DNA of 64,000 bases from a virus (Duplodnaviria > Caudoviricetes). Under the pieces are notes generated by a model. It made no database searches, was not told the origin of the DNA, and worked only from the letters and a program-made list of their open reading frames with translations. Position numbers and translations under genes: made by a program. The stretch is from IMG/VR virus record IMGVR_UViG_3300023047_000002. One strand, given 5' to 3'. Shown piece after piece: positions 11,650-40,231 of this stretch (the first letter of the stretch is position 1; every line of letters starts with the position of its first letter).

Positions 11650-12045
11650 ATGATTCAATGTCTATCAGAACTAGAATCTGAATATATTAGTTACCGTTCC
11701 AGACGTTTTCCTGATGAATACACATGGCTTACAGGCAACTGTTTTCAGTACGCTTGTATCCTTCGTGAGTGGTTGCTGCTTCATTGTGTTGCATCACGTA
11801 TAGTTTATGATGTGATTGACGGACATTTCCTCGTTATTTCTGAACTGCCTATGAACCGTAATGATACGGTTTTGTTTTCGTTTGTCTTGGACTATACCGG
11901 CGTTGTAGTTATCCATCCTGGGTTCATAAATGTTTTAGGTGAGATTTTTTATCATGATGGCAAACATTTCCTTGTGGATTGGGATTATTATGCCGAGATT
12001 GAGCCTCTTAATTGGAGTAGGATTTGTTCTTATTGCTGTTGCTGA
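11650..12045 (+). CDS. hypothetical phage protein
   Basis: GNCFQYA..L ... IVYD..DGHF ... LDYTG pattern (possible Cys-His-Asp fold). Confidence 0.6.
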   Translation: MIQCLSELESEYISYRSRRFPDEYTWLTGNCFQYACILREWLLLHCVASRIVYDVIDGHFLVISELPMNRNDTVLFSFVLDYTGVVVIHPGFINVLGEIFYHDGKHFLVDWDYYAEIEPLNWSRICSYCCC

Positions 12046-12099
12046 ATTATTTTGTTTTCGTCTTTGTTGCGTGATTCAGATTATTGTGTTATCTAAACA

Positions 12100-12713
12100 G
12101 TAAGATTGCGGCACATTAGACCTGTCGCAGTTCTTTGAAAGGTGAAGAATGGTTTGGTACATGGCTTTCCAACGTACAGGATCTTATACAAGCTGAGTTT
12201 GTGGGTTGTTTCCGAGCAAGAAAAAGCAAAGATTGGCTTCGCGGCTGTCTTAACTTGACTTACGTTTCCTATACACTTCTTCAGAAAGGTTATCACTCTT
12301 GTGGTAGGTTTTCTGAAGAAGTGTGGCGGGTGAGATGACTAACACGGATTGATCGTGGCGTGCACCTTCGTTTTGACGCTTGACTGTGACGAGGTTTTAC
12401 GGGTCTTCGGGCTTGCTTGCACAGTTCACCACCGGTATCGTGACGGTGGTGAGATGATGGCTAGGTGTGGGATGATCGTTGCACACAATTCCCGTAAAGG
12501 GCTGTACGTTGGAAAGCCATGTAACTTGCTTGGATGGTCACACTTTGTGGCTTACGGCAGAATCGCCAGGGCGCACGTTTTCGTGTGGGAATACTCCTGC
12601 CCTTAAAGTCTTTGGTTTATGATGTTGCTTGCATCATTGATTGTAAGGGCTTTGTGCCCTCCGTGTCGAATTGCATGAAAGAGCGTTCTGTTATCAGCAG
12701 AACGCTCTTTTTT
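12100..12713 (+). ncRNA. candidate large structured non-coding RNA, family unknown
   Basis: Perfect 22 bp long-range helix 12158-12179/12502-12523, 15 bp and 9 bp internal helices, many G.U-compatible stems on the + strand, a C(UUCG)G loop, a 3' terminator and no credible ORF. Confidence 0.7.
12678..12713 (+). terminator. intrinsic terminator
   Basis: AAAGAGCGTTCTG-ttatcag-CAGAACGCTC followed by T6. Confidence 0.85.
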
Positions 12714-12728
12714 GTGTCTCGTTTACCG

Positions 12729-12768
12729 TGGTGCTGTACTCTTTTCTATATCGACTTTGTGGTAGAGT
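12729..12768 (+). promoter_or_regulatory. TGGTGCT-N27-TAGAGT promoter (sbcC-N)
   Basis: Fixed-spacing motif with TGTGG before the -10. Confidence 0.7.
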
Positions 12769-12807: not shown

Positions 12808-14118
12808 TTGGAGAGTACAGTGTTTAAAGTTGAATTGACAAATGTAGGTATTATTCGAGAGGCGAGCTTGTCTTTCGTACCTGGTGTAAACTTAATTCTC
12901 GGTGCAAGCTCTTCCGGTAAGTCTACGCTGTTGCGTGCTTTAAGAGGTCTTGCAGACAACAGCTTTACGGATGCTATGGTTACGCATGGTTCTGGTATGA
13001 TGCAGATTGATGTGGATACGGGTGACTCTCACGTTACCTATACCCGTGATACCAAAGCCCGTGATAGAAAAGCATGTTATGTTGTGAATGGTGAGGAGTA
13101 CACGAAACTCGGTAGGCAGCAGCTTGATGTTGTTGCTGACACCTTGCGTGTGTCTTCAGTTAAAATTGACTCAGAGTCAGTGAACTTTAACTTTTCCAGT
13201 CAGTTTGCAGGACCGTTCCTTCTCCTCGGTTCTCCTTCTACGTTGTATTCGGTTTTGACTTATCATGAGAGTTTCGATGTCTCAAGGCTTGATGACCTGT
13301 ATAAAGCTGACGTTAAAGATACTTCAGACAAGATAAAGTTGAGTACTGAATTGGTTTCACAGTTTGAGATTGAGCTAGAAAAGTCTGATGCACGTGTAAA
13401 AGAGTTGTCTGCAATCCCTGATTTATATGCACGTGTGATGCAGGTCAAAATGAAACGTGAACGAGTTGAAAGTCTTCGTTCTATTTTAACTCGGATTTCT
13501 ACGTTGCAGGCTGAACGTGTTCGATGTGTAGCCATGCTTCATAAGCATTCAGACATGCATAGTTCTATCGTCACGTGTATGCTTAAGATGCGTAAGCGTC
13601 ATCTGTTGTCTTCTCTTGTGATTCGCTATGAAGAACAACGTAAAGCACGTGAGATTCTTAGTCTGTGTAATGAAGTGTCTTCATTTCCCATTACCCGTGT
13701 TGAATCCGCACTGTCACATTACTTGACCGTTGTGAAATGGGTTGAAATGAATGATGCTTACAATAAGCAACTGTCTCGTTATCGCATGTCAGACAGTGTT
13801 GCTTCTGTGTCGGTAAACAAGTTCTTGGAAATCTTGTCAAGATTTGAGAAAATTTCACGCCTTGTAAATCTTTATCGTGATATCCGAAATTCAGCTGTCC
13901 GCCTTGGAAATTCTCCTGACTTAAAGTCACGGTACGAAATTATTGAGAAATGTATCTCCGCCATCTCTCTGTTTCGTGAAGTTGATGTTTCGTCACGGAA
14001 GATGCTTGGGTTCGATGTGGATTGCGATTTCGTTGATAGTCAACTGGCTGAGTTTAAGGTTTGCCCTTTATGCGGCAACCCTTTGTGTACTCACGATGAA
14101 GCGTCTGTGGTGCTGTAA
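12808..14118 (+). CDS. SbcC/Rad50-like ATPase, N-terminal half ending at the zinc hook
   Basis: GVNLILGASSSGKSTLLRAL (Walker A), Q-loop FSSQF, helical region, C-terminal CPLCG; no Walker B. Confidence 0.8.
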   Translation: MESTVFKVELTNVGIIREASLSFVPGVNLILGASSSGKSTLLRALRGLADNSFTDAMVTHGSGMMQIDVDTGDSHVTYTRDTKARDRKACYVVNGEEYTKLGRQQLDVVADTLRVSSVKIDSESVNFNFSSQFAGPFLLLGSPSTLYSVLTYHESFDVSRLDDLYKADVKDTSDKIKLSTELVSQFEIELEKSDARVKELSAIPDLYARVMQVKMKRERVESLRSILTRISTLQAERVRCVAMLHKHSDMHSSIVTCMLKMRKRHLLSSLVIRYEEQRKAREILSLCNEVSSFPITRVESALSHYLTVVKWVEMNDAYNKQLSRYRMSDSVASVSVNKFLEILSRFEKISRLVNLYRDIRNSAVRLGNSPDLKSRYEIIEKCISAISLFREVDVSSRKMLGFDVDCDFVDSQLAEFKVCPLCGNPLCTHDEASVVL

Positions 14119-23334: not shown

Positions 23335-23365
23335 GTTAAAATTCTTTGTCGCCATGTCTCGTCAG

Positions 23366-23405
23366 TGGTGCTGTCACATTCCTATTGGGTATTGTGTGGT
23401 ATTCT
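23366..23405 (+). promoter_or_regulatory. TGGTGCT-N27-TATTCT promoter (polA)
   Basis: Fixed-spacing motif enclosed by inverted repeat 23349-23358/23410-23419. Confidence 0.7.
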
Positions 23406-23457: not shown

Positions 23458-26400
23458 ATGGCTGATGATAAGAAGAATTTGCATAAGGGTTATGTTCATT
23501 ACATTCCTGCCGTTGAAGAGAAAGATGATTGGGACAAAGATTTGACCTTTGTGCTTATTCGCACTCTTGATGAGCTTCGCGTTCACGATGTCGAACATGA
23601 CTTTACTGCATGGGATACTGAAACAAGCGGACTCGACCCGGACATGGATTATCTTGTTGGGTTTTCTTTTTCCTTTGACGGTAAGACAGGGTACTATGTT
23701 CCTGTCGCCCATGATGACATGGCTCTTGGTACTGAAGCTGTTGAAATTTTCTATTCCATTCTTAAAAAGACACGTAAAACACAGTTCCTTTTTAACTGTC
23801 GATTTGACCAGCGATTCCTTGAGGCTGCACTAAAGCATAAAGGTTGGACGCTTGATGGGATGTCGTACTACGATGTTCAAAATGCAATATGGCTTGCTGA
23901 TACTAATGTGGTTATGCCTTCACTCAAAGCGTCCGCTCGCCACTTTCTTGGGTGGAAGCCGAAGACGTTCGATGAGACATTGGGCGATGCAGTCACATTC
24001 CAACACGTTCCCGCCGAAGACGCTTATTTTTATGCTTGCACTGATGCGTTAATGACATATCAGTTGGCTCTTGTATCGAATAAATTCTACCGTGAAAATC
24101 TCCCGGCAAGTCGGTTCGATAACAATATGCTTTATCCACTGATGCGGCTTGAGAATACACCTCAGCGTCTTGATACGGAGTATTTAAAGAGCCTTGTTCC
24201 TCAAGTCGAAGCTATAATCGAACGCACACGTGAAGAAGTTTACCGTTTAGCCGGAACACAATTCAATCTGAATGCTCCGCAGCAGTTCGGAAAAATTCTT
24301 GTTGAACGCTTTGGTGTTGATACAGGTGCACGTACAGCAACCGGAGCCATGAAAGCTGACCTGAAAACCATTGATGCATGGATGGTGAAACACAATGCAG
24401 TAATCGGACAGGACATTAAGGATTTCATTAAGGCTTACAAGGAATACAAGAAGACAGTCAAGTTCAAGTCATCGTACCTTGACAAGTACATTAAGGCAGC
24501 AAGTGAGCAGGATATTTACCCAGTTCGTTTTTCTTACAAGACTAACAGTGTTCCCACTGGGAGGCTAAGTTGTGGCACCTCTGCAAAGAATAAATTTTTC
24601 ACGAATAATAACGTCCAGTGCCTTGAAGAGAATACGTCTGTTATCACATCAGAAGGAATAAAGCCTATAAAACATGTAAATACTGGTGACTTAGTTTGGA
24701 CAGGTTCTGCTTTCGTTCCGTGTGTGCAGCTCGGTTCAAAGCAGAAGAGATGTGAAACAGTGTGGACGTATTTCGGAAAGATTACTGCATCTCTTGAGCA
24801 TAAGTTCTATACGCTTAACTTGTATACTTTCGAGCTTGAATGGGATGCACTTGCTTCTGCTATTGCACAAGGAAAACCCATCGTAAGAAATACCGAAGAC
24901 GGTGGATTTACATTACGTGAATTGCTTGAGAATGAGACGTTTAAGAAATCTATGCTTCTTAAACCTGAACTTTCAGGTGAGCGTATTAAAGAACTTGAAA
25001 ACCTTTACGCTGATATCCGTTTCGATATGATACGTAAAACTGATAATTTCTGGTACCCGAACATCATTCCTCCAAAAGTTACCGTATACGATTTAGAAGT
25101 GCCTACGTATGAACGGTTTACGGCAAATGGGTTTATCGTTCATAACAGCACACCAAAGCCTCATGCTGTCCTGCTTAAAGGGCGTAAGGCTACTGAGCAG
25201 GAAATAGCTGAGAAGAAAGACATTCTTGGATGGTATTTCTCTAACGACATTCCAGACGAAGAAGCAAAGGGGCTTGTAGAGGGGATGGACCCTGACAATC
25301 TCAATATCCGACGTGCTTTCTTGTCTGAAAATGACCAGTGTTATGTGGTTTCAATCGACATGTGCCTTGAGGGTGGTTCGCCTGTTCAGACGAAACACGG
25401 GTATATGGGAATATGCGAGATAAAGCCAGGCGATGAAGTATTGTCGCCGCAAGGATGGGTTACCGTGAGCCGCGTGATGCGTACAGGCGTGGAAAAAGTA
25501 ATCAAAGTTTTCCCTGATAATGGTGGTCAGGCAATCTACTGTACTGAGAATCATCCGTTTGTCATCAATGGGGAAAAGGTAAAAGCAAAAGATATTAAGG
25601 GTAAAGTTCCTAGCGTTCCGTTTCATGCTTATGTAAAGGAAAGCGTTGAGCGTAATAAAGTGATTGAATGTTTGTCTTATTTGAAACAGTGCAAAACAAT
25701 AAAAGAGGCTTCACATTATGTTCTCGAACATGACTTGAAACTCCTTATTGAGGATGCCTTGGAAACTTACACACGTGCAGAGGTCTCTAAATGGTGCGGC
25801 ATACGTGTGTCGTCTTTCGGTCATTTTATGAATGATCTTGGAATTCAACCTACTGGAAAGGAATTTTGTTATCGTCAGAGCAAATTTTACAATAATGTGT
25901 TTGAAGGCGAAAGCACTCCCACGTCAGCATATCTTTTCGGGTTCATTCTGGGCGATGGGAACATCAGTCGGCGGCGAGGTGATTATCTCACGTTGAACAT
26001 ATCGTCAAAAGACGAAGCACATCTGCGTCAGATATGCAACATCTTTGGCGAGGATTTGAACATTCGCCATAATGAAAAGAAAGGTTGTGAATGGTGGTGC
26101 TTGAACATACCTAGTCGCGACATCTGCAATCGTTTGCTTGAGTTGGGTATTAGCGAGCGTAAATCAACAGAACCTAGTCATGTAAACTTTGAATGGTTAG
26201 GTGATAACTTCCGTCATTTCATTCGCGGACTTTTCGATGCGGATGGTTATGTGAGAATTACGTCCGTGCTCGACGTTAGTTTTGTTGGGCATGATTCCTA
26301 TATCACGGAAATAAAGAAACGCATTGAGGGTCAGTGGAGTTATAAATACACGTCGTCCTTGTCTCATCTGTCGTTGCTTGGAACTGTTGAACAGCGAAAG

Positions 26401-28818
26401 TTTATCTACGAATACTTGTATCAGGAAGCGACTATCTGGTTACAACGTAAACGTGACATCATTGAATCGTGGTATCAGGACAAGTTCGGCGATTTGGTAT
26501 TTCCTGTATGGAATTGTACAGTTGACACTACTGAACACCAGTTGTATGTTCAGTGTACAAATGTGCACCAGTGCGCAGAGGAACTCCGGATAGTAGCCAA
26601 CCTTTATCACGAGGATACATGGATAAATGCATTCAACAGCGGTGCAGACGTTCACAAGGCATGTTATTCGCCTGACACAGAGTTCTATGTCAAATCACAC
26701 GGTTGGATGTATGCTGAGAACATAACACCTGAGATGGAGATTGCCTATTATGACGTAAGATCTGATTCGTTCAAGTTTACGAAAGCAGATAAGCGGGCTA
26801 CACAGAAAGGTCGAGATGTATATGTACGTAGTGGTGTTTTCAATGTCACTGGTAATCATCGTATGTACGTAAATTTCGATACTCAGGGATATCACATCGA
26901 ACGTGCAGATAACCTGAAAAATTGCGGCAATGCAAAGCAGCGTTTCCACATGAAGACCGCAGTAGGAACACGTGTTGAGTTCTCAAAAGAACGTAATAAG
27001 GATAACGCTACTGCCTTCGCTCTTGGGTTCTTGTCTTCTATTGATAAGGAATTTGATGGTACACGAATGATCGTGAAATGTTCAACATTGTACCCTGAGG
27101 TCTTTCAAATCCTAAAGGACTACGCATGTAATTCTACGAACAAAACGTTGTTTGCGTTTAGTGATAAAGGTGTCTCTTATTTGACCAGTCTTGGTTTCTC
27201 TACGTCTCTTGGTCGTGTTGTCGATGACGCTCAAATCTTAACGTCACGTAATCGTTATAGAGGATTCATTTGCGGGTTATTGCACGGGTTATCATGTCGA
27301 AAAGACAGCGAGATTTATCTTGGAGACGGTTCCGATTTACATGGTCGAACTTATGTCAAAGACAAAGCTCTAGCTGACTGGATTCAATGGCATCTCACAT
27401 GTAACGGATACTCGTGCAGGGTAACGCATAATGTTCTCTCTGACAGGTATGCGTTATACATTGAGTCACGACAAGACAAAGATGTCTGTATGACGTTCCA
27501 TTCTGTGAAGGGTCATAGTTTGACAAATGGAGGAATATACTCGTGCTTCGAGGTTCCTAGTGGTCTTCTCGTTACACGGTATGATGGACGTATTACAGTT
27601 AATGGTAATACGGCTATTAAGTTATTTGGTGAGGAGAATTACACTAAAGACGCACGTAAGAAAGCAAAGTGCCTGTCAGGCGATACAATGGTTCACACAG
27701 TTGACGGACGTTCTATTCAGATACGCAATCTTGTTTCTGAAGAAACGCATATGAATGCAGTTGAAGGTAATCCGGTTGATATACGGTACAAAGATATTAA
27801 GATTTCTACACCTGATGGGTGGAGTGATGTCACACACTGGATTTATAATGGATTCCGTGAAACGTTGAAGATCACTATTGATCGGCGTCTGATGCTTGAA
27901 GTAACTCCTGATCATTTGGTTGGTAAGTATGAACCTGATGCACATGAAGATGACTCAAAGAAATATACACTTGTTCGTGCTGACTCCTTGTCAGTAGGAG
28001 ACATGGTCTTATGGGATTATTGTCCTATGCGTATAACAAGCATCCAAAAAGGGTACAGTGATGTTTACGACATTACGGTTGACAATGTGTCTCACACGTT
28101 CCATGCAAACGGAGTAGTCGTCCATAACTGTGCGAGCTTCGGGATTCTTTATGGTTCTGGTGCACAAGGTTTTAACAACTCTTTCCCAGACATGACATTG
28201 GATGAGTGTCGTGACTTTATGAAAAAGTTCAAAGATGCACTCCCTGCAATCAGTCAAGGTCAAGCAGAGAATATAGCGTATGCTAGACAGTATGGTGATA
28301 TTAACACAGGGTTCGGTCGTCATCGCCGTGTGAAGTTTTGGCTTTCAAGTCCTGACCGTGCAAAACAGGCATTTGGTGAGAGAACTACTAAAAATACTGC
28401 AGTTCAAGGGACCGCTGCTGATGTATTGAAAATCATATTCTGTCGTTTGTGGGAGAAAGTTTTCAAGCCGTATCCGCAGGTGAAATTCATGTCAACCATT
28501 CACGATGAGGTCAATTTTTCGATTCCTATTGAATTGGCACGTGAAGTTATTCCTTTGTGTGTCGAATGTATGACCATCGAACGTGAAGACTGGCCAGTAC
28601 CTCTAAAGTGTTCATTATCGTTGAGTCGTACTGATTTGGGTAGTCTTATTCCATTTACGTATGATGCTGCTACGGACACGTATGAGCCTGAATGGGATAC
28701 ACTTGAAGTGAAGCCAAAAGTCACGCATACTGTAGAAGCTAATGTCGTTGCTACAGAAGACGAAAACAACTTTGACGATTGTGTGTATGGCGTATCTTTA
28801 GATGAAATAGACTTTTAG
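23458..28818 (+). CDS. polA: family A DNA polymerase (3'-5' exonuclease + polymerase) with four inteins
   Basis: Exo motifs WDTETSGL, FNCRFD, YACTDA; TGRLS; after intein removal motif A SIDM|CAEELR, motif B RKKAK|CASFGILYG, NTAVQGTAAD, motif C TIHDEV; mature protein ~738 aa. Confidence 0.93.
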   Translation: MADDKKNLHKGYVHYIPAVEEKDDWDKDLTFVLIRTLDELRVHDVEHDFTAWDTETSGLDPDMDYLVGFSFSFDGKTGYYVPVAHDDMALGTEAVEIFYSILKKTRKTQFLFNCRFDQRFLEAALKHKGWTLDGMSYYDVQNAIWLADTNVVMPSLKASARHFLGWKPKTFDETLGDAVTFQHVPAEDAYFYACTDALMTYQLALVSNKFYRENLPASRFDNNMLYPLMRLENTPQRLDTEYLKSLVPQVEAIIERTREEVYRLAGTQFNLNAPQQFGKILVERFGVDTGARTATGAMKADLKTIDAWMVKHNAVIGQDIKDFIKAYKEYKKTVKFKSSYLDKYIKAASEQDIYPVRFSYKTNSVPTGRLSCGTSAKNKFFTNNNVQCLEENTSVITSEGIKPIKHVNTGDLVWTGSAFVPCVQLGSKQKRCETVWTYFGKITASLEHKFYTLNLYTFELEWDALASAIAQGKPIVRNTEDGGFTLRELLENETFKKSMLLKPELSGERIKELENLYADIRFDMIRKTDNFWYPNIIPPKVTVYDLEVPTYERFTANGFIVHNSTPKPHAVLLKGRKATEQEIAEKKDILGWYFSNDIPDEEAKGLVEGMDPDNLNIRRAFLSENDQCYVVSIDMCLEGGSPVQTKHGYMGICEIKPGDEVLSPQGWVTVSRVMRTGVEKVIKVFPDNGGQAIYCTENHPFVINGEKVKAKDIKGKVPSVPFHAYVKESVERNKVIECLSYLKQCKTIKEASHYVLEHDLKLLIEDALETYTRAEVSKWCGIRVSSFGHFMNDLGIQPTGKEFCYRQSKFYNNVFEGESTPTSAYLFGFILGDGNISRRRGDYLTLNISSKDEAHLRQICNIFGEDLNIRHNEKKGCEWWCLNIPSRDICNRLLELGISERKSTEPSHVNFEWLGDNFRHFIRGLFDADGYVRITSVLDVSFVGHDSYITEIKKRIEGQWSYKYTSSLSHLSLLGTVEQRKFIYEYLYQEATIWLQRKRDIIESWYQDKFGDLVFPVWNCTVDTTEHQLYVQCTNVHQCAEELRIVANLYHEDTWINAFNSGADVHKACYSPDTEFYVKSHGWMYAENITPEMEIAYYDVRSDSFKFTKADKRATQKGRDVYVRSGVFNVTGNHRMYVNFDTQGYHIERADNLKNCGNAKQRFHMKTAVGTRVEFSKERNKDNATAFALGFLSSIDKEFDGTRMIVKCSTLYPEVFQILKDYACNSTNKTLFAFSDKGVSYLTSLGFSTSLGRVVDDAQILTSRNRYRGFICGLLHGLSCRKDSEIYLGDGSDLHGRTYVKDKALADWIQWHLTCNGYSCRVTHNVLSDRYALYIESRQDKDVCMTFHSVKGHSLTNGGIYSCFEVPSGLLVTRYDGRITVNGNTAIKLFGEENYTKDARKKAKCLSGDTMVHTVDGRSIQIRNLVSEETHMNAVEGNPVDIRYKDIKISTPDGWSDVTHWIYNGFRETLKITIDRRLMLEVTPDHLVGKYEPDAHEDDSKKYTLVRADSLSVGDMVLWDYCPMRITSIQKGYSDVYDITVDNVSHTFHANGVVVHNCASFGILYGSGAQGFNNSFPDMTLDECRDFMKKFKDALPAISQGQAENIAYARQYGDINTGFGRHRRVKFWLSSPDRAKQAFGERTTKNTAVQGTAADVLKIIFCRLWEKVFKPYPQVKFMSTIHDEVNFSIPIELAREVIPLCVECMTIEREDWPVPLKCSLSLSRTDLGSLIPFTYDAATDTYEPEWDTLEVKPKVTHTVEANVVATEDENNFDDCVYGVSLDEIDF
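24619..25146 (+). mobile_element. PolA intein 1 (mini-intein, 176 aa)
   Basis: Q|CLEENTSV...SLEH...VYDLEV...ANGFIVHN|S. Confidence 0.9.
25363..26571 (+). mobile_element. PolA intein 2 (403 aa, LAGLIDADG endonuclease, C-terminal Gln)
   Basis: M|CLEGGSPV...CTENHPF...YLFGFILGDG...FIRGLFDADG...NVHQ|C. Confidence 0.9.
26662..27609 (+). mobile_element. PolA intein 3 (316 aa, degenerate endonuclease)
   Basis: A|CYSPDTEF...VTGNHRM...CFEVPSG...ITVNGN|T. Confidence 0.88.
27670..28128 (+). mobile_element. PolA intein 4 (mini-intein, 153 aa)
   Basis: K|CLSGDTMV...VTPDH...VYDITV...ANGVVVHN|C. Confidence 0.92.
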
Positions 28819-30430: not shown

Positions 30431-30432
30431 TG

Positions 30433-30472
30433 TGGTGCTGATACTCAAGTTCTACATAAATTGTGGTAGAGT
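30433..30472 (+). promoter_or_regulatory. TGGTGCT-N27-TAGAGT promoter
   Basis: Fixed-spacing motif with TGTGG before the -10. Confidence 0.7.
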
Positions 30473-35571: not shown

Positions 35572-35611
35572 CATTATGCACCACCACAAACCATTCATTG
35601 ATGAGGTGTCT

Positions 35612-37363
35612 ATGAGTAAAGATTGCCTAAGCATTTCAGTCCTGAAAAAGAATAATTCCGTTGTCCCATTTGACGGAGATAAAATAAAATCTGCGATACG
35701 TAAATCTGCTGAACGTGTGAATGTTACTATGACCACAGAACAGGAAGACTTCGTTGTTTCTTATGTTGAAAATCTTTGTCCTGTGAATGAGCCTGTACAG
35801 GTGAAGGCGTTGCATAATTATGTCGAGTGTGCCCTTGATTCAGTGAACACAGAAGTAGCACGCTCTTATCGTGAGTATCGCAATTACAAGACGCAGTTCG
35901 TTAAGATGCTTGATCAGGTATACCGAAAGAAGCTCGAACTTTCAGACAAGCGGGACGCATCGAATGCCAATGCCGATTCTGACCTTATTACAACTCAGAA
36001 AGCAATCGCATACGCTGAATTGAATGGCGAGCTTTACAAACGGTTCTTCCTGACGGACGAGGAAAACAAAGCACAGGAAGACGGGTATATTTACATCCAT
36101 GACAAAGGCGCAAGACTAGATACCACGAATTGTTTCAGTAGGAATACACGCTTTATCACGTCTGCTGGCATCCGTTCGTTCAATGACTTTGTTGACGGTG
36201 ACACGGTGCAGGTGTTATCGCATCGCGGTCTGTGGCGTATTGGGACAGTTCATTGCTTTGGTGAGCAGGAGACTCAGATCGTCACGTTCGTAAATGAGGA
36301 CATGTCTGTAAGGCATACCGTTGAATGCACTCCCAACCATAGGTGGATACTCTCTGACAGTAGCATTACAACTGAGCTTAAAAAGGACGATGTCTTAGTC
36401 AAATCACCATGCGACATAGAGGGCAGGATTACACAGTTTCGTGGCGTTGTTTGGACAGTAGAAGACATTGAGAAAACAGACAGAGTTGAACCCGTATGGT
36501 GTCTTACGGTGGATACGGATCATTCATTCGTTCTTGAATCAGGCATCCCGACTGGCAACTGTTGTTTGTTTGACATGAAATCCCTTTTGAAAGGCGGTTT
36601 TCGTATGGGCAACATAAGTTATCGTGAGCCGAAGACAGCCGGAACAGCATTGTCTCTTATCGCTGATATCGCATTGAATGCAGGTGCAAGTCAGTACGGT
36701 GGTTTCACAATATCGGAGATTGACAAACTGCTTGAGCCGTATGCACATGAATCATACGACCGTTATTATGCTGAGTATGTTGAACTTACTGGTAAAAAAG
36801 ATCCGATGGGTGCAACGATTTATGCGAATAAAAAGTTACGTCAAGAACTTGAAGATGGTGCGATTGCCATTGAATGTAAATGGAATTCATGTTCTACGGC
36901 TCGCGGCGATTATCCCTTCACGTCCATCTCGTTCGGTTTGTCAAGAGACCGTTTAGGTCAAATGGTGACATCGGCTTTTTTAAAGGTTCGTAAAGAAGGT
37001 GCTGGAACCTCTGACCATATTCCCGTTCTGTTCCCCAAACTGACGTTTCTTTATGACGAGGATATGCACGGAGCAGGTAAGGAACAGGAATGGCTTTTCA
37101 AGGAAGCCGTTGAATGCACACAAAGGGCGCAGTATCCTGATTTCCTCTCGATGACAGGCGACGGTTATGCACCTTCGATGTATAAGAAATATGGCGTGTC
37201 TATTAGCCGTATGGGATGTAGAGCCAACCTGTCCCCGTGGTATGAGATGGGTGGTCAGGAACCCGCTGATGACTTGTATGAAATTGAATATGACGATGGT
37301 ACAAAGGAGATTGTTCAAAAAGGCTTCTTGATCGGTGATCAGAAAGTTGAAGATATGGTGTAG
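35612..37363 (+). CDS. nrdD: anaerobic ribonucleotide reductase NrdD, N-terminal fragment (ATP cone, intein, finger-loop Cys)
   Basis: VLKKNNSVVPFDGDKIKSAI (ATP cone), GYIYIHD, N|CCL, QYGG, LFPKL, QYPDF, MGCR; stops after a 29 aa non-NrdD tail. Confidence 0.92.
   Translation: MSKDCLSISVLKKNNSVVPFDGDKIKSAIRKSAERVNVTMTTEQEDFVVSYVENLCPVNEPVQVKALHNYVECALDSVNTEVARSYREYRNYKTQFVKMLDQVYRKKLELSDKRDASNANADSDLITTQKAIAYAELNGELYKRFFLTDEENKAQEDGYIYIHDKGARLDTTNCFSRNTRFITSAGIRSFNDFVDGDTVQVLSHRGLWRIGTVHCFGEQETQIVTFVNEDMSVRHTVECTPNHRWILSDSSITTELKKDDVLVKSPCDIEGRITQFRGVVWTVEDIEKTDRVEPVWCLTVDTDHSFVLESGIPTGNCCLFDMKSLLKGGFRMGNISYREPKTAGTALSLIADIALNAGASQYGGFTISEIDKLLEPYAHESYDRYYAEYVELTGKKDPMGATIYANKKLRQELEDGAIAIECKWNSCSTARGDYPFTSISFGLSRDRLGQMVTSAFLKVRKEGAGTSDHIPVLFPKLTFLYDEDMHGAGKEQEWLFKEAVECTQRAQYPDFLSMTGDGYAPSMYKKYGVSISRMGCRANLSPWYEMGGQEPADDLYEIEYDDGTKEIVQKGFLIGDQKVEDMV
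36131..36559 (+). mobile_element. NrdD mini-intein (143 aa)
   Basis: N|CFSRNTRF...CTPNHRW...VWCLTV...GIPTGN|C. Confidence 0.9.
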
Positions 37364-37375: not shown

Positions 37376-37465
37376 GCAAAAAGGGCTAGGTCGGCCAACC
37401 GAAAAGAAGCCTTATCCACTTCCTGCCCTTTTTCTCTGTGGATAGCGTGTTGAGGATAGAGCACC

Positions 37466-39265
37466 ATGAAATCAAAAAAAGTGTATCCGGAGTGGTTTCT
37501 TGCGGAACTTGCGGATGAAGAAACCAGACATCGTTTTGAGAAAGGGGATTGTAAGGTCTCTGAGTGTGTATATTTCACATGTCCAAACGGTCATCCTGCG
37601 TATAAGCAACTTGTTAAGAATCATATTACATCGTCAGGTACACCAAGGAATAAGTGTCCTGTATGTGCAAAGTTGAATCAAACCACGTTTGTTCCACCTG
37701 ATTGGGTTGTCGAGGACTTAGCGAATGAAACGGAGCGTGAAGCTCTTCGTGGAACTGCGTGCAATTCAAAATCGAAATTTTCTTTCGTCTGTAAGCAGTG
37801 TGGAACTGTTTACGAACAAACTATATGGAATCATTCTATCGGTAAGCGGGTATGTCATGCTTGTGCAAGTAAATGTAGAGGAAAATCTTACAGTGAGACA
37901 ATAGGACAAAGAAGAAAGCCTTATCCAGAATGGTTTGTGAATGAACTGGTTAATGACAGTGACAAAGAGAGGGCATTACGTGGCGATATTACCGGTACGG
38001 AAAATGTTACGTTCAGATGCCTTGCAGGTTTAGAGCATCCGAATTATGTTCAGACTGTTAAGAGTCATATATGTATTTCTACCGGGCATCCTAAAAACGG
38101 ATGCCCCGTGTGTAGGTATATCAAGTCATCAAAAGGCATATCTGAATTTTACAAGGGTGTTAGAAAGGAGTTTCCGCCTGAGCTTTATGACGAGGTTTAT
38201 AAGGATGAGGACAGGGACAAACTGCGCAACCGACAGTTGTCATATAATGAGTCCATTGATTGGGTATGTCAGTCATGTGGTCGTGTTTACAGTCAGATGA
38301 TTAAAGATCACATTCGTGGGAAACGTTGTAACTACTGTGCCGGTAAGATTTCCGATGAGGAGTGCATTCTAAGGGAAATGATCACTCCATATTACAACGG
38401 TGAAATTCTCTACAACACAAGGGATGGGTTTGACGGTTATGAGGTTGACATCTACATACCGGAATACAAGATAGCTATTGAGTATAATGGTTCCTTTTGG
38501 CACAAATCGCTTCCGAGTGGCTTTGCATCCAGAGACCGTCTGTACCACCTTCACAAATTCGAGCTGTGCCAACGCAAAGGGATAAGGCTTTTAAGCATTT
38601 TTGACGTTGACCTGTTATTTAGGAAGGAAATCTTATCGAGGTTTTTTATGGACTTGTTTGTGCCTAAAAAGGTCTTGTATGCAAGAAAGTGCCGTGTGGA
38701 ATGTATTAGCTCCTCTATGGCTAATTCTATGTATGCACAGCATCATTTACTTGGAAGCACTCCAAATTTGTCCGTGTCTTATGGGTTGTTCCATGAGGGC
38801 GAACTCGTGTCCTGTATGTCTTTTCAAAAGGGAAGGTATAAAGTTTCAGGTCATCCAGTGTGGTGTTTGACTCGGTTTGTCACGAAGTCCGGCATCTCTG
38901 TTATTGGCGGAGCGTCAAAACTCTTGTGTCAGTTCGAGCAGGCATATAGTCCATCGTGTATAGTGTCTTACTCTGATAATGATTTCTTTCAAGGTGGCGT
39001 ATATGAGAAACTTGGATTCACTTGCCTCGGCGTTACAAAGACACCAAGGTATTACTGGTTTTTGCATGGTTTGGAATATAGCCGGGAACAGTGTCAGCTT
39101 AAAAATTTATCTAAAAATTACCCTGATTTGTTTGAGGAAGCAAAGAGTATACATGGGAATAAAGAAGACTTTATTATGCTTAGATTAGGTGCATTTAAAG
39201 TCTTTCGTTCGGGGCATACAAAGTGGGTTAAACACTATGAGGGAGAAATTTATGAAAAAGGTTAA
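37466..39265 (+). mobile_element. free-standing homing endonuclease (Zn-ribbon repeats + Vsr/Hef-like nuclease) inserted in nrdD
   Basis: Repeated YPEWF...C..H/CxxC units, EVDIYIPEYKIAIEYNGSFWH, C-terminal YARKC...GGASKLL...SYSD...YEKLGF. Confidence 0.8.
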
Positions 39266-40190: not shown

Positions 40191-40191
40191 G

Positions 40192-40231
40192 TGGTGCTGG
40201 TATCCGAAATCTAACCTTTATGTGGTATAAG
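40192..40231 (+). promoter_or_regulatory. TGGTGCT-N27-TATAAG promoter
   Basis: Fixed-spacing motif immediately after the nrdD-C stop. Confidence 0.7.

Follow-up and report, generated by a model that had tools for sequence, protein, structure and literature searches.

A predicted family of large structured phage RNAs with a leader resembling that of ribosomal RNA operons

Introduction

What does a large phage keep in a stretch of DNA that holds no credible gene? The question is raised by a locus in a piece of a large phage genome, which is analyzed here as a window of 64,000 nt. The list of open reading frames contains no credible gene between 12046 and 12819, in agreement with the gene-free gap of ~760 nt reported in a preliminary description of this DNA, and the downstream product on record starts at GTG 12820. 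Only a handful of RNAs that exceed 500 nt and have an extensively conserved structure are known from bacteria and phages (OLE, GOLLD, ROOL, HEARO, and raiA). ROOL and GOLLD are phage and prophage RNAs whose function is not known; they form nanocages held together by kissing loops and A-minor contacts. The preliminary description had proposed that the gap holds a stand-alone RNA as well, and the comparison with homologous loci reported here was used to ask what the gap encodes, how its product may be made, and whether it belongs to a known family.

Results

The gap and its neighborhood

A tail-fiber assembly gene and two small genes lie upstream of the gap. Downstream are the genes for an SbcC-like ATPase (12820-14118) and an SbcD-like phosphoesterase, and further on those for a family-A DNA polymerase with inteins, a RecA-like protein, and an anaerobic NrdD. 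The polymerase gene (23458-28818, 1786 aa) is split by intein, Hint, and LAGLIDADG segments. An Rfam int-alpA RNA match at 37379-37447 (40.4 bits, gathering score 35.8) sits between an NrdD-like ORF (35576-37363) and a DUF4379 zinc-finger ORF (37466-39265), and the NrdD region around it may be split or invaded.

The gene directly upstream of the gap (11650-12045) is conserved and encodes 131 aa. Its AlphaFold model (pLDDT 90) has a fold like that of Phage_YunG or the transglutaminase core, with invariant Cys31, His59, and Asp residues. Foldseek gave no PDB match at E ≤ 0.001, and no Pfam or PHROG match was found by sequence. Judged from the model, the protein may be a small thiol enzyme; it has no obvious RNA-binding fold.

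Within the gap, positions 12158-12179 and 12502-12523 form a perfect 22-nt inverted repeat with arms 322 nt apart, for which the chance expectation is ~3e-8 such pairs per 1 kb. The shorter helices that had been listed together with it are also in place: one of 15 bp forms the perfect outer pairs of a hairpin at 12273-12296 / 12301-12324, and one of 9 bp lies at 12426-12434 / 12444-12452. Folded as RNA, the + strand of the gap reaches −244.6 kcal/mol (z = −9.5 against dinucleotide shuffles); the − strand reaches −185.7 kcal/mol (z = −7.2 by the same measure). Neither the 64-kb window nor the seven homologous loci described below contain a tRNA by ARAGORN, and no tmRNA was found. A tRNA-like reading of the element was rejected on this search.

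Homologous loci

Searching with the ATPase recovered seven other metagenomic phage contigs with the same gene order and a long gene-free gap upstream of the ATPase gene. The ATPase identity of the homologous loci to that of the window is 48–94%.

L001: ATPase 94% identical to that of the window; IMG/VR contig of 138 kb, the nearest relative
L087: ATPase 83% identical; WGS contig of 238 kb
L112: ATPase 82% identical; Logan
L109: ATPase 56% identical; ENA
L110: ATPase 52% identical; Logan
L002: ATPase 49% identical; IMG/VR contig of 228 kb
L113: ATPase 49% identical; Logan

A further locus, L115, carries a partial copy of the element. The landmarks of the gap are common to all homologous loci, and the gaps align end to end. 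With nhmmer, one copy of the RNA was located at each homologous locus and no second copy in the 64-kb window. The comparative set consists of eight sequences, including that of the window, from about four lineages.

One of these loci differs in a neighboring gene. Two genes upstream of the RNA, L112 has a 229-aa gene (1130-1819) with a Cas12f1-like_TNB (TnpB C-terminal) domain in place of the 99-aa ORF of the window; this replacement suggests IS200/IS605-type traffic in the region.

Comparative evidence for a folded + strand RNA

Base pairs were counted on a hand-set six-helix structure laid over a MAFFT alignment of the eight sequences. In the core helices, 96.6% of cells hold standard pairs, a value that falls to 35–44% when the 3′ partners are slid by one to three columns. 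Changes on both sides were seen for 19 pairs, compared with four to six in the slid controls; this is the covariation among homologs to which the preliminary description had tied its proposal. In 500 shuffles, the observed figure was never reached, whether for percentage paired, for double changes, or for covariation score.

The strand can be read from the same helices. That description had taken G.U-compatible pairs on the + strand as a mark of RNA, and the counts bear it out: the core helices contain 33 G.U cells and 3 A.C cells. The minimum free energy of the + strand lies 23–92 kcal/mol below that of the − strand in all eight homologs, and for L002, a distant homolog, the fold has z = −14.4. 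No ORF is conserved: those of at least 35 aa change frame between close relatives, and the ones that are left, one in L002 and one in L113, are at different places.

These results bear on the proposal that the gap works as DNA, as a replication origin, packaging site, or cruciform, or that it is a cluster of small ORFs. The element adjoins recombination and replication genes, and inverted repeats could form in DNA too. Against this stand the ratio of G.U to A.C cells and the energy advantage of the + strand, both of which argue for RNA. Cumulative GC skew in the window tracks gene orientation and has no turn at 12 kb; the earlier preference for RNA over a DNA origin thus agrees with the lack of a replication-type switch. 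Small ORFs are opposed by the frame shifts between homologs. We regard a DNA-level element or ORF cluster as highly improbable; together these results speak strongly against protein coding, against a cruciform or origin in the DNA, and against an RNA from the − strand. Because of the covariation, the G.U bias, the fold energies, the lack of a conserved ORF, and the lack of a skew switch, we predict that the gap is a real gene for a stand-alone, highly folded, noncoding + strand RNA of ~610–900 nt. Compensatory base-pair changes preserve its helices across a small phage clade.

The transcription unit

Signals for transcription surround the element, and a different type of signal precedes the ATPase gene.

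12067-12072 / 12090-12095, + strand: predicted sigma-70-type promoter, −35 TTGCGT, 17-nt spacer, and −10 TATCTA, recognized by sequence
12677-12716, + strand: intrinsic terminator from a terminator scan, a 16-pair G+C-containing hairpin followed by a U run
12728-12764, + strand: separate phage-type promoter of the SbcC-like ATPase gene, outside the RNA and marking its 3′ boundary
12728-12764, 23365-23401, 30432-30468, and 40191-40227, + strand: copies of GTGGTGCT-N21-TGTGGTA, before the genes for the ATPase, the DNA polymerase, and others

One base separates the −10 hexamer from a TG on its 5′ side, and with this extension the −10 element spans 12087-12095. The hexamers, their spacing, and the TG are kept in six of the eight homologs, while the sequence of the spacer varies. 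Transcription probably starts near 12100-12103. The arms of the terminator hairpin are at 12678-12690 and 12698-12710; hairpin and U run are found in all eight homologs, with compensatory changes in the stem. The bracketing of the element by promoter and strong terminator, as described earlier, is therefore a property of most or all homologs (6/8 and 8/8, respectively). The predicted RNA of the window spans 12102-12716 on the + strand and is ~610 nt long. Six homologs have RNAs of ~610–645 nt; insertions in the 3′ domain bring that of L109 to ~800 nt and that of L110 to ~900 nt.

The motif GTGGTGCT-N21-TGTGGTA has four exact copies on the + strand of the window, where none is expected, and each copy is just 5′ of a gene. 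It probably represents a phage-specific promoter class, unlike the promoter of the RNA itself.

The element is always upstream of the same ATPase gene, as would be expected of a cis-acting leader (a riboswitch or attenuator) of the SbcC/SbcD-like operon. The strong terminator and then the separate, conserved phage promoter nevertheless intervene before that gene. An extra small gene lies between RNA and ATPase in L002, and ~230 nt separate the two in L109. More distant ATPase relatives, at ~30% identity (L088, L089, and L114), have neither such an upstream gap nor a homologous RNA. We give a cis-acting leader very little credence. Because of the terminator, the separate downstream promoter, and the gene in L002 and spacing in L109, the RNA is taken to be its own transcription unit. 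With its own promoter and terminator, a long closing helix, and no conserved ORF, it fits the stand-alone phage RNA that was first proposed.

Architecture of the RNA

The elements of the predicted structure are given below in 5′ to 3′ order.

12104-12113 / 12123-12132, + strand: P1, the 5′-terminal leader hairpin, in the position of boxB
12132-12140, + strand: boxA-like motif UCUUUGAAA, immediately 3′ of P1
12158-12179 / 12502-12523, + strand: P2, the long-range closing helix, perfect over 22 bp
12181-12336, + strand: subdomain enclosed by P3, with variable hairpins, an A-rich single strand, and P5
12181-12187 / 12330-12336, + strand: P3, a proposed pairing in which both strands are invariant, compatible with pairing and not proof of it
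12273-12296 / 12301-12324, + strand: P5, a long hairpin of ~24 bp
12337-12359, + strand: junction strand and hairpin P6 (12343-12347 / 12353-12357), the block with the highest sequence conservation in the family
12360-12484, + strand: subdomain closed by P7 (12360-12364 / 12480-12484), in which three pairs are changed on both sides
12383-12393 / 12416-12425, + strand: P9, within the P7 subdomain
12400-12415, + strand: P9a, a UUCG-capped hairpin within the P7 subdomain
12426-12434 / 12444-12452, + strand: P10, within the P7 subdomain
12379-12384 with 12453-12463, + strand: candidate C/D-like kink-turn at a three-way junction, read by eye
12485-12490, + strand: conserved junction strand
12491-12501, + strand: P11, a mini-hairpin in which a C-G pair becomes U.G in L002 and L113
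12524-12676, + strand: 3′ domain, with hairpins at 12536-12552, 12573-12587, 12588-12598, and 12619-12637, plus P17
12646-12660, + strand: P17, a conserved hairpin with a G-C to U-A change among homologs

The closing helix P2 has the clearest comparative record. Over the eight sequences, 21 consecutive columns are without any nonstandard pair, and 13 of the 22 pairs are changed on both sides. The helix is present in every homolog, with a length of 22 to ~35 bp, and encloses a core of ~320–340 nt, after which the 3′ hairpin domain follows. For P1, P5, and the 3′ domain, MAFFT sets divergent stems out of register, and the support comes from folds of the individual sequences. A P1 hairpin is predicted in all eight homologs from differing stem sequences, and the pairs of its aligned core covary. 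P5 has at least 23 pairs in each of the eight, built from at least three unrelated stem sequences. The hairpins of the 3′ domain recur in homologs with altered stems, in an alignment too poor for a formal pair count. Together with P1, they represent the additional 5′ and 3′ stems of the preliminary description.

Inside P2, the A-rich single strand at about 12218-12232 is conserved in all eight sequences. Some minimum free energy folds pair the 5′ strand of P3 with the loop of P11 instead of with its proposed partner. The junction/P6 block contains a 28-nt motif, common to the eight sequences, with 22 fixed positions; one pair of P6 changes from A-U to G-C in L109. In L087 and L112 a perfect stem of unrelated sequence stands in place of P10, and in L001 a C-to-U change in P10 gives G.U. 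A kink-turn has tandem sheared G.A pairs beside a 3-nt bulge, with a canonical stem on one flank and a noncanonical stem on the other. By eye, the candidate kink-turn has YUGA in seven and GAUGR in all eight sequences, and in the stem next to it a C-G pair is exchanged once for U-A; L110 deviates. The stretch 12485-12523, comprising the junction strand, P11, and the 3′ arm of P2, is the second most conserved block.

Two further pairings were considered and rejected. A pseudoknot between the P6 loop and the strand at 12485-12490 was dropped, as by eye it fits three of the eight sequences. The 8-bp pairing of 12396-12403 with 12491-12498 that had been proposed earlier exists as a sequence match in the window and does not hold up as a conserved pairing: it is broken in L001 and absent from L002 and L113. 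Positions 12491-12498 belong instead to the conserved local mini-hairpin P11.

Sequence conservation is highest in the strands that join P2, P3, P6, P7, and P11, and peripheral stems and loops vary freely. We read this as the mark of a compact core that carries the function, with struts that can be exchanged. In the proposed model, helices P3, P6, P7, and P11 would meet at one junction inside P2; the bases on which P3 and this junction model depend are invariant. The 3′ domain is larger in L109 (2330-2676) and L110 (2455-2912), by ~190 and ~290 nt of extra hairpins, respectively. As size variants that occur in nature, they indicate which parts the RNA can do without.

Family assignment and distribution

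The earlier statement that the RNA cannot be assigned to a family was borne out by cmscan against Rfam 15. With permissive filters, no family was assigned to the element in the window or to four homologs, and at the gathering score a scan of the whole window gave no match for the element. The covariance models of ROOL (RF03087) and GOLLD, including the conserved 3′ region of GOLLD, matched neither the element in the window at E up to 10 nor the four homologs at E up to 5. The only matches of any kind were sub-threshold hits of microRNA-type hairpins on P5. The predicted RNA thus founds a new family, unrelated to known ones, of an already known kind: ornate phage RNAs without an assigned function.

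An exact scan with the core motif of 22 specified bases returned two IMG/VR contigs that were already known; among 185,579 species genomes it had no match. With a shorter motif of 15 bases, 83 loci were obtained, and a gapped pattern added 3; when these were examined with nhmmer, the known homologs alone were real, the rest being chance, and no RNA copy was present in the ~85 chance motif loci. Species genomes searched with the ATPase yielded a P-loop match only. A DNA search of GenBank phages with the element gave no match, and protein searches of the same phages with both neighboring genes gave almost nothing. Because motif scans, distant ATPase relatives, and nhmmer add no further copies, the family is small, and all members known to date come from a single clade of large uncultured phages (contigs of 138–243 kb).

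The likeness in kind to ROOL and GOLLD (~580 to >800 nt) raises the possibility of a homo-oligomeric assembly made of RNA alone. P2 and P5 would then be struts and not processing sites, and the junction and A-rich strands would make contacts between molecules of a cage or multimer. The element is, like those RNAs, phage-encoded, large (610–900 nt), ornate, stand-alone, and defined by covariation, with no evident partner protein, and its conserved A-rich single strand invites comparison with the A-minor contacts of the known nanocages. It differs from both in matching neither covariance model, in sharing no common sequence motif, and in its position: ROOL and GOLLD are often beside tRNA islands, whereas no tRNA genes are near this RNA. 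Its apical loops are variable, and no conserved self-complementary loop was seen. We consider an assembly of this kind unlikely; it is compatible with the rrn-like biogenesis described in the next section and does not exclude it.

A possible leader of the rRNA-operon type

In the rrn operons of Bacillus subtilis, the boxA-like sequence to which NusB binds comes immediately after a small hairpin at the 5′ end (PMC13753749). The order in such operons is boxB, boxA, and leader-trailer helix, and RNase III cleaves that helix (PMC10250234). The boxA recruits an antitermination complex, and tethering through boxA has been proposed to aid formation of the leader-trailer helix (PMC10250234). The 5′ end of the phage RNA looks like the leader of a ribosomal RNA operon, with a hairpin, a boxA-like motif, and a long helix. 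The motif at 12132-12140 is identical in 9/9 positions to the core of the boxA consensus of B. subtilis rrn operons (PMC13753749). Five other homologs have CCUUGAAA, which matches the core in 8/9 positions, L001 has two differences, and L110 is without the motif; in five homologs the motif contains just two U. A helix comparable to the leader-trailer helix surrounds the structured RNA in all eight sequences in the form of P2, which by analogy may be regarded as its formal equivalent. RNase III needs a helix of about 20 bp. P2 and P5 are both kept at ~20 bp or more in all homologs.

From this analogy we propose, tentatively and at somewhat less than even odds, that synthesis of the RNA follows the scheme of a ribosomal RNA operon in miniature, P1 and the boxA-like motif recruiting the NusB/S10 antitermination complex of the host. 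With this complex in place, the long untranslated transcript would be protected from Rho, and the leader strand would be retained until its trailer partner has emerged, allowing P2 to form. P2 and perhaps P5 (~24 bp) may then serve as RNase III substrates, by which the core would be freed from the 3′ domain; this step, too, we hold to be a little less probable than its opposite. Once mature, the RNA would use the conserved junction to scaffold a partner, either protein or RNA. Taken as a whole, the explanation that we favor combines a new-family RNA of ~610 nt, rrn-like biogenesis, possible release by RNase III, and a junction scaffold, and we consider it slightly more probable than not.

A bolder version, which we regard as doubtful, is a phage "rRNA-like operon" in which the antitermination complex of the host and RNase III build and release a core of ~340 nt with the conserved junction as its active site or assembly interface. 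That core would be a new ribozyme, RNP machine, or RNA nanostructure used in infection.

The same helices can be turned to a different account, in which an abundant early RNA acts as a decoy or sponge in anti-defense or host takeover and titrates RNase III, a kink-turn binder, a ribosomal protein, or a defense sensor. The host-type promoter of the RNA, unlike the phage motif that drives neighboring genes, is in keeping with this idea, as are the two helices of at least 22 bp kept in all homologs and the presence of a candidate kink-turn. The kink-turn is a candidate read by eye, however, and no defense or counter-defense gene is linked to the element. We judge a decoy or sponge to have a low probability.

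Discussion

The favored reading, a new-family RNA with rrn-like biogenesis, can be set beside three known systems. The combination of a putative rrn-like hairpin-boxA leader with a closing helix of 22 to ~35 bp distinguishes the RNA from ROOL and GOLLD. With the leader of a bacterial rRNA operon it appears to share the order of elements: the 5′ hairpin, the boxA-like motif directly after it, and the long helix formed from sequences that flank a structured RNA. The enclosed RNA, unlike that of an rRNA operon, is ~320 nt long and has no rRNA match in Rfam, and most homologs have a weaker form of the boxA-like motif, with one lacking it altogether. Outside rrn operons, boxA occurs on long untranslated or leader RNAs, including those of CRISPR arrays and the suhB leader (PMC13753749). 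The phage RNA resembles these in carrying a boxA-like motif on an untranslated transcript; whereas they belong to host genes of Gammaproteobacteria, here the motif is found in a phage gene for a highly folded RNA.

Each of the few large RNAs known from bacteria and phages opened new biology, RNA-only nanocages being the most recent case. The element described here represents a further, unrelated large-RNA family with clear covariation, well-defined predicted ends, a compact conserved junction, and size variants from 610 to 900 nt. Its ends, junction, and size variants make the RNA suited to in vitro transcription, chemical probing, and cryo-EM. To our knowledge, there is no earlier phage case in which boxA-type antitermination and a leader-trailer helix serve a nonribosomal RNA. 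If the proposal is true, the rrn-like leader would mean that a phage uses both to make a structured RNA of its own.
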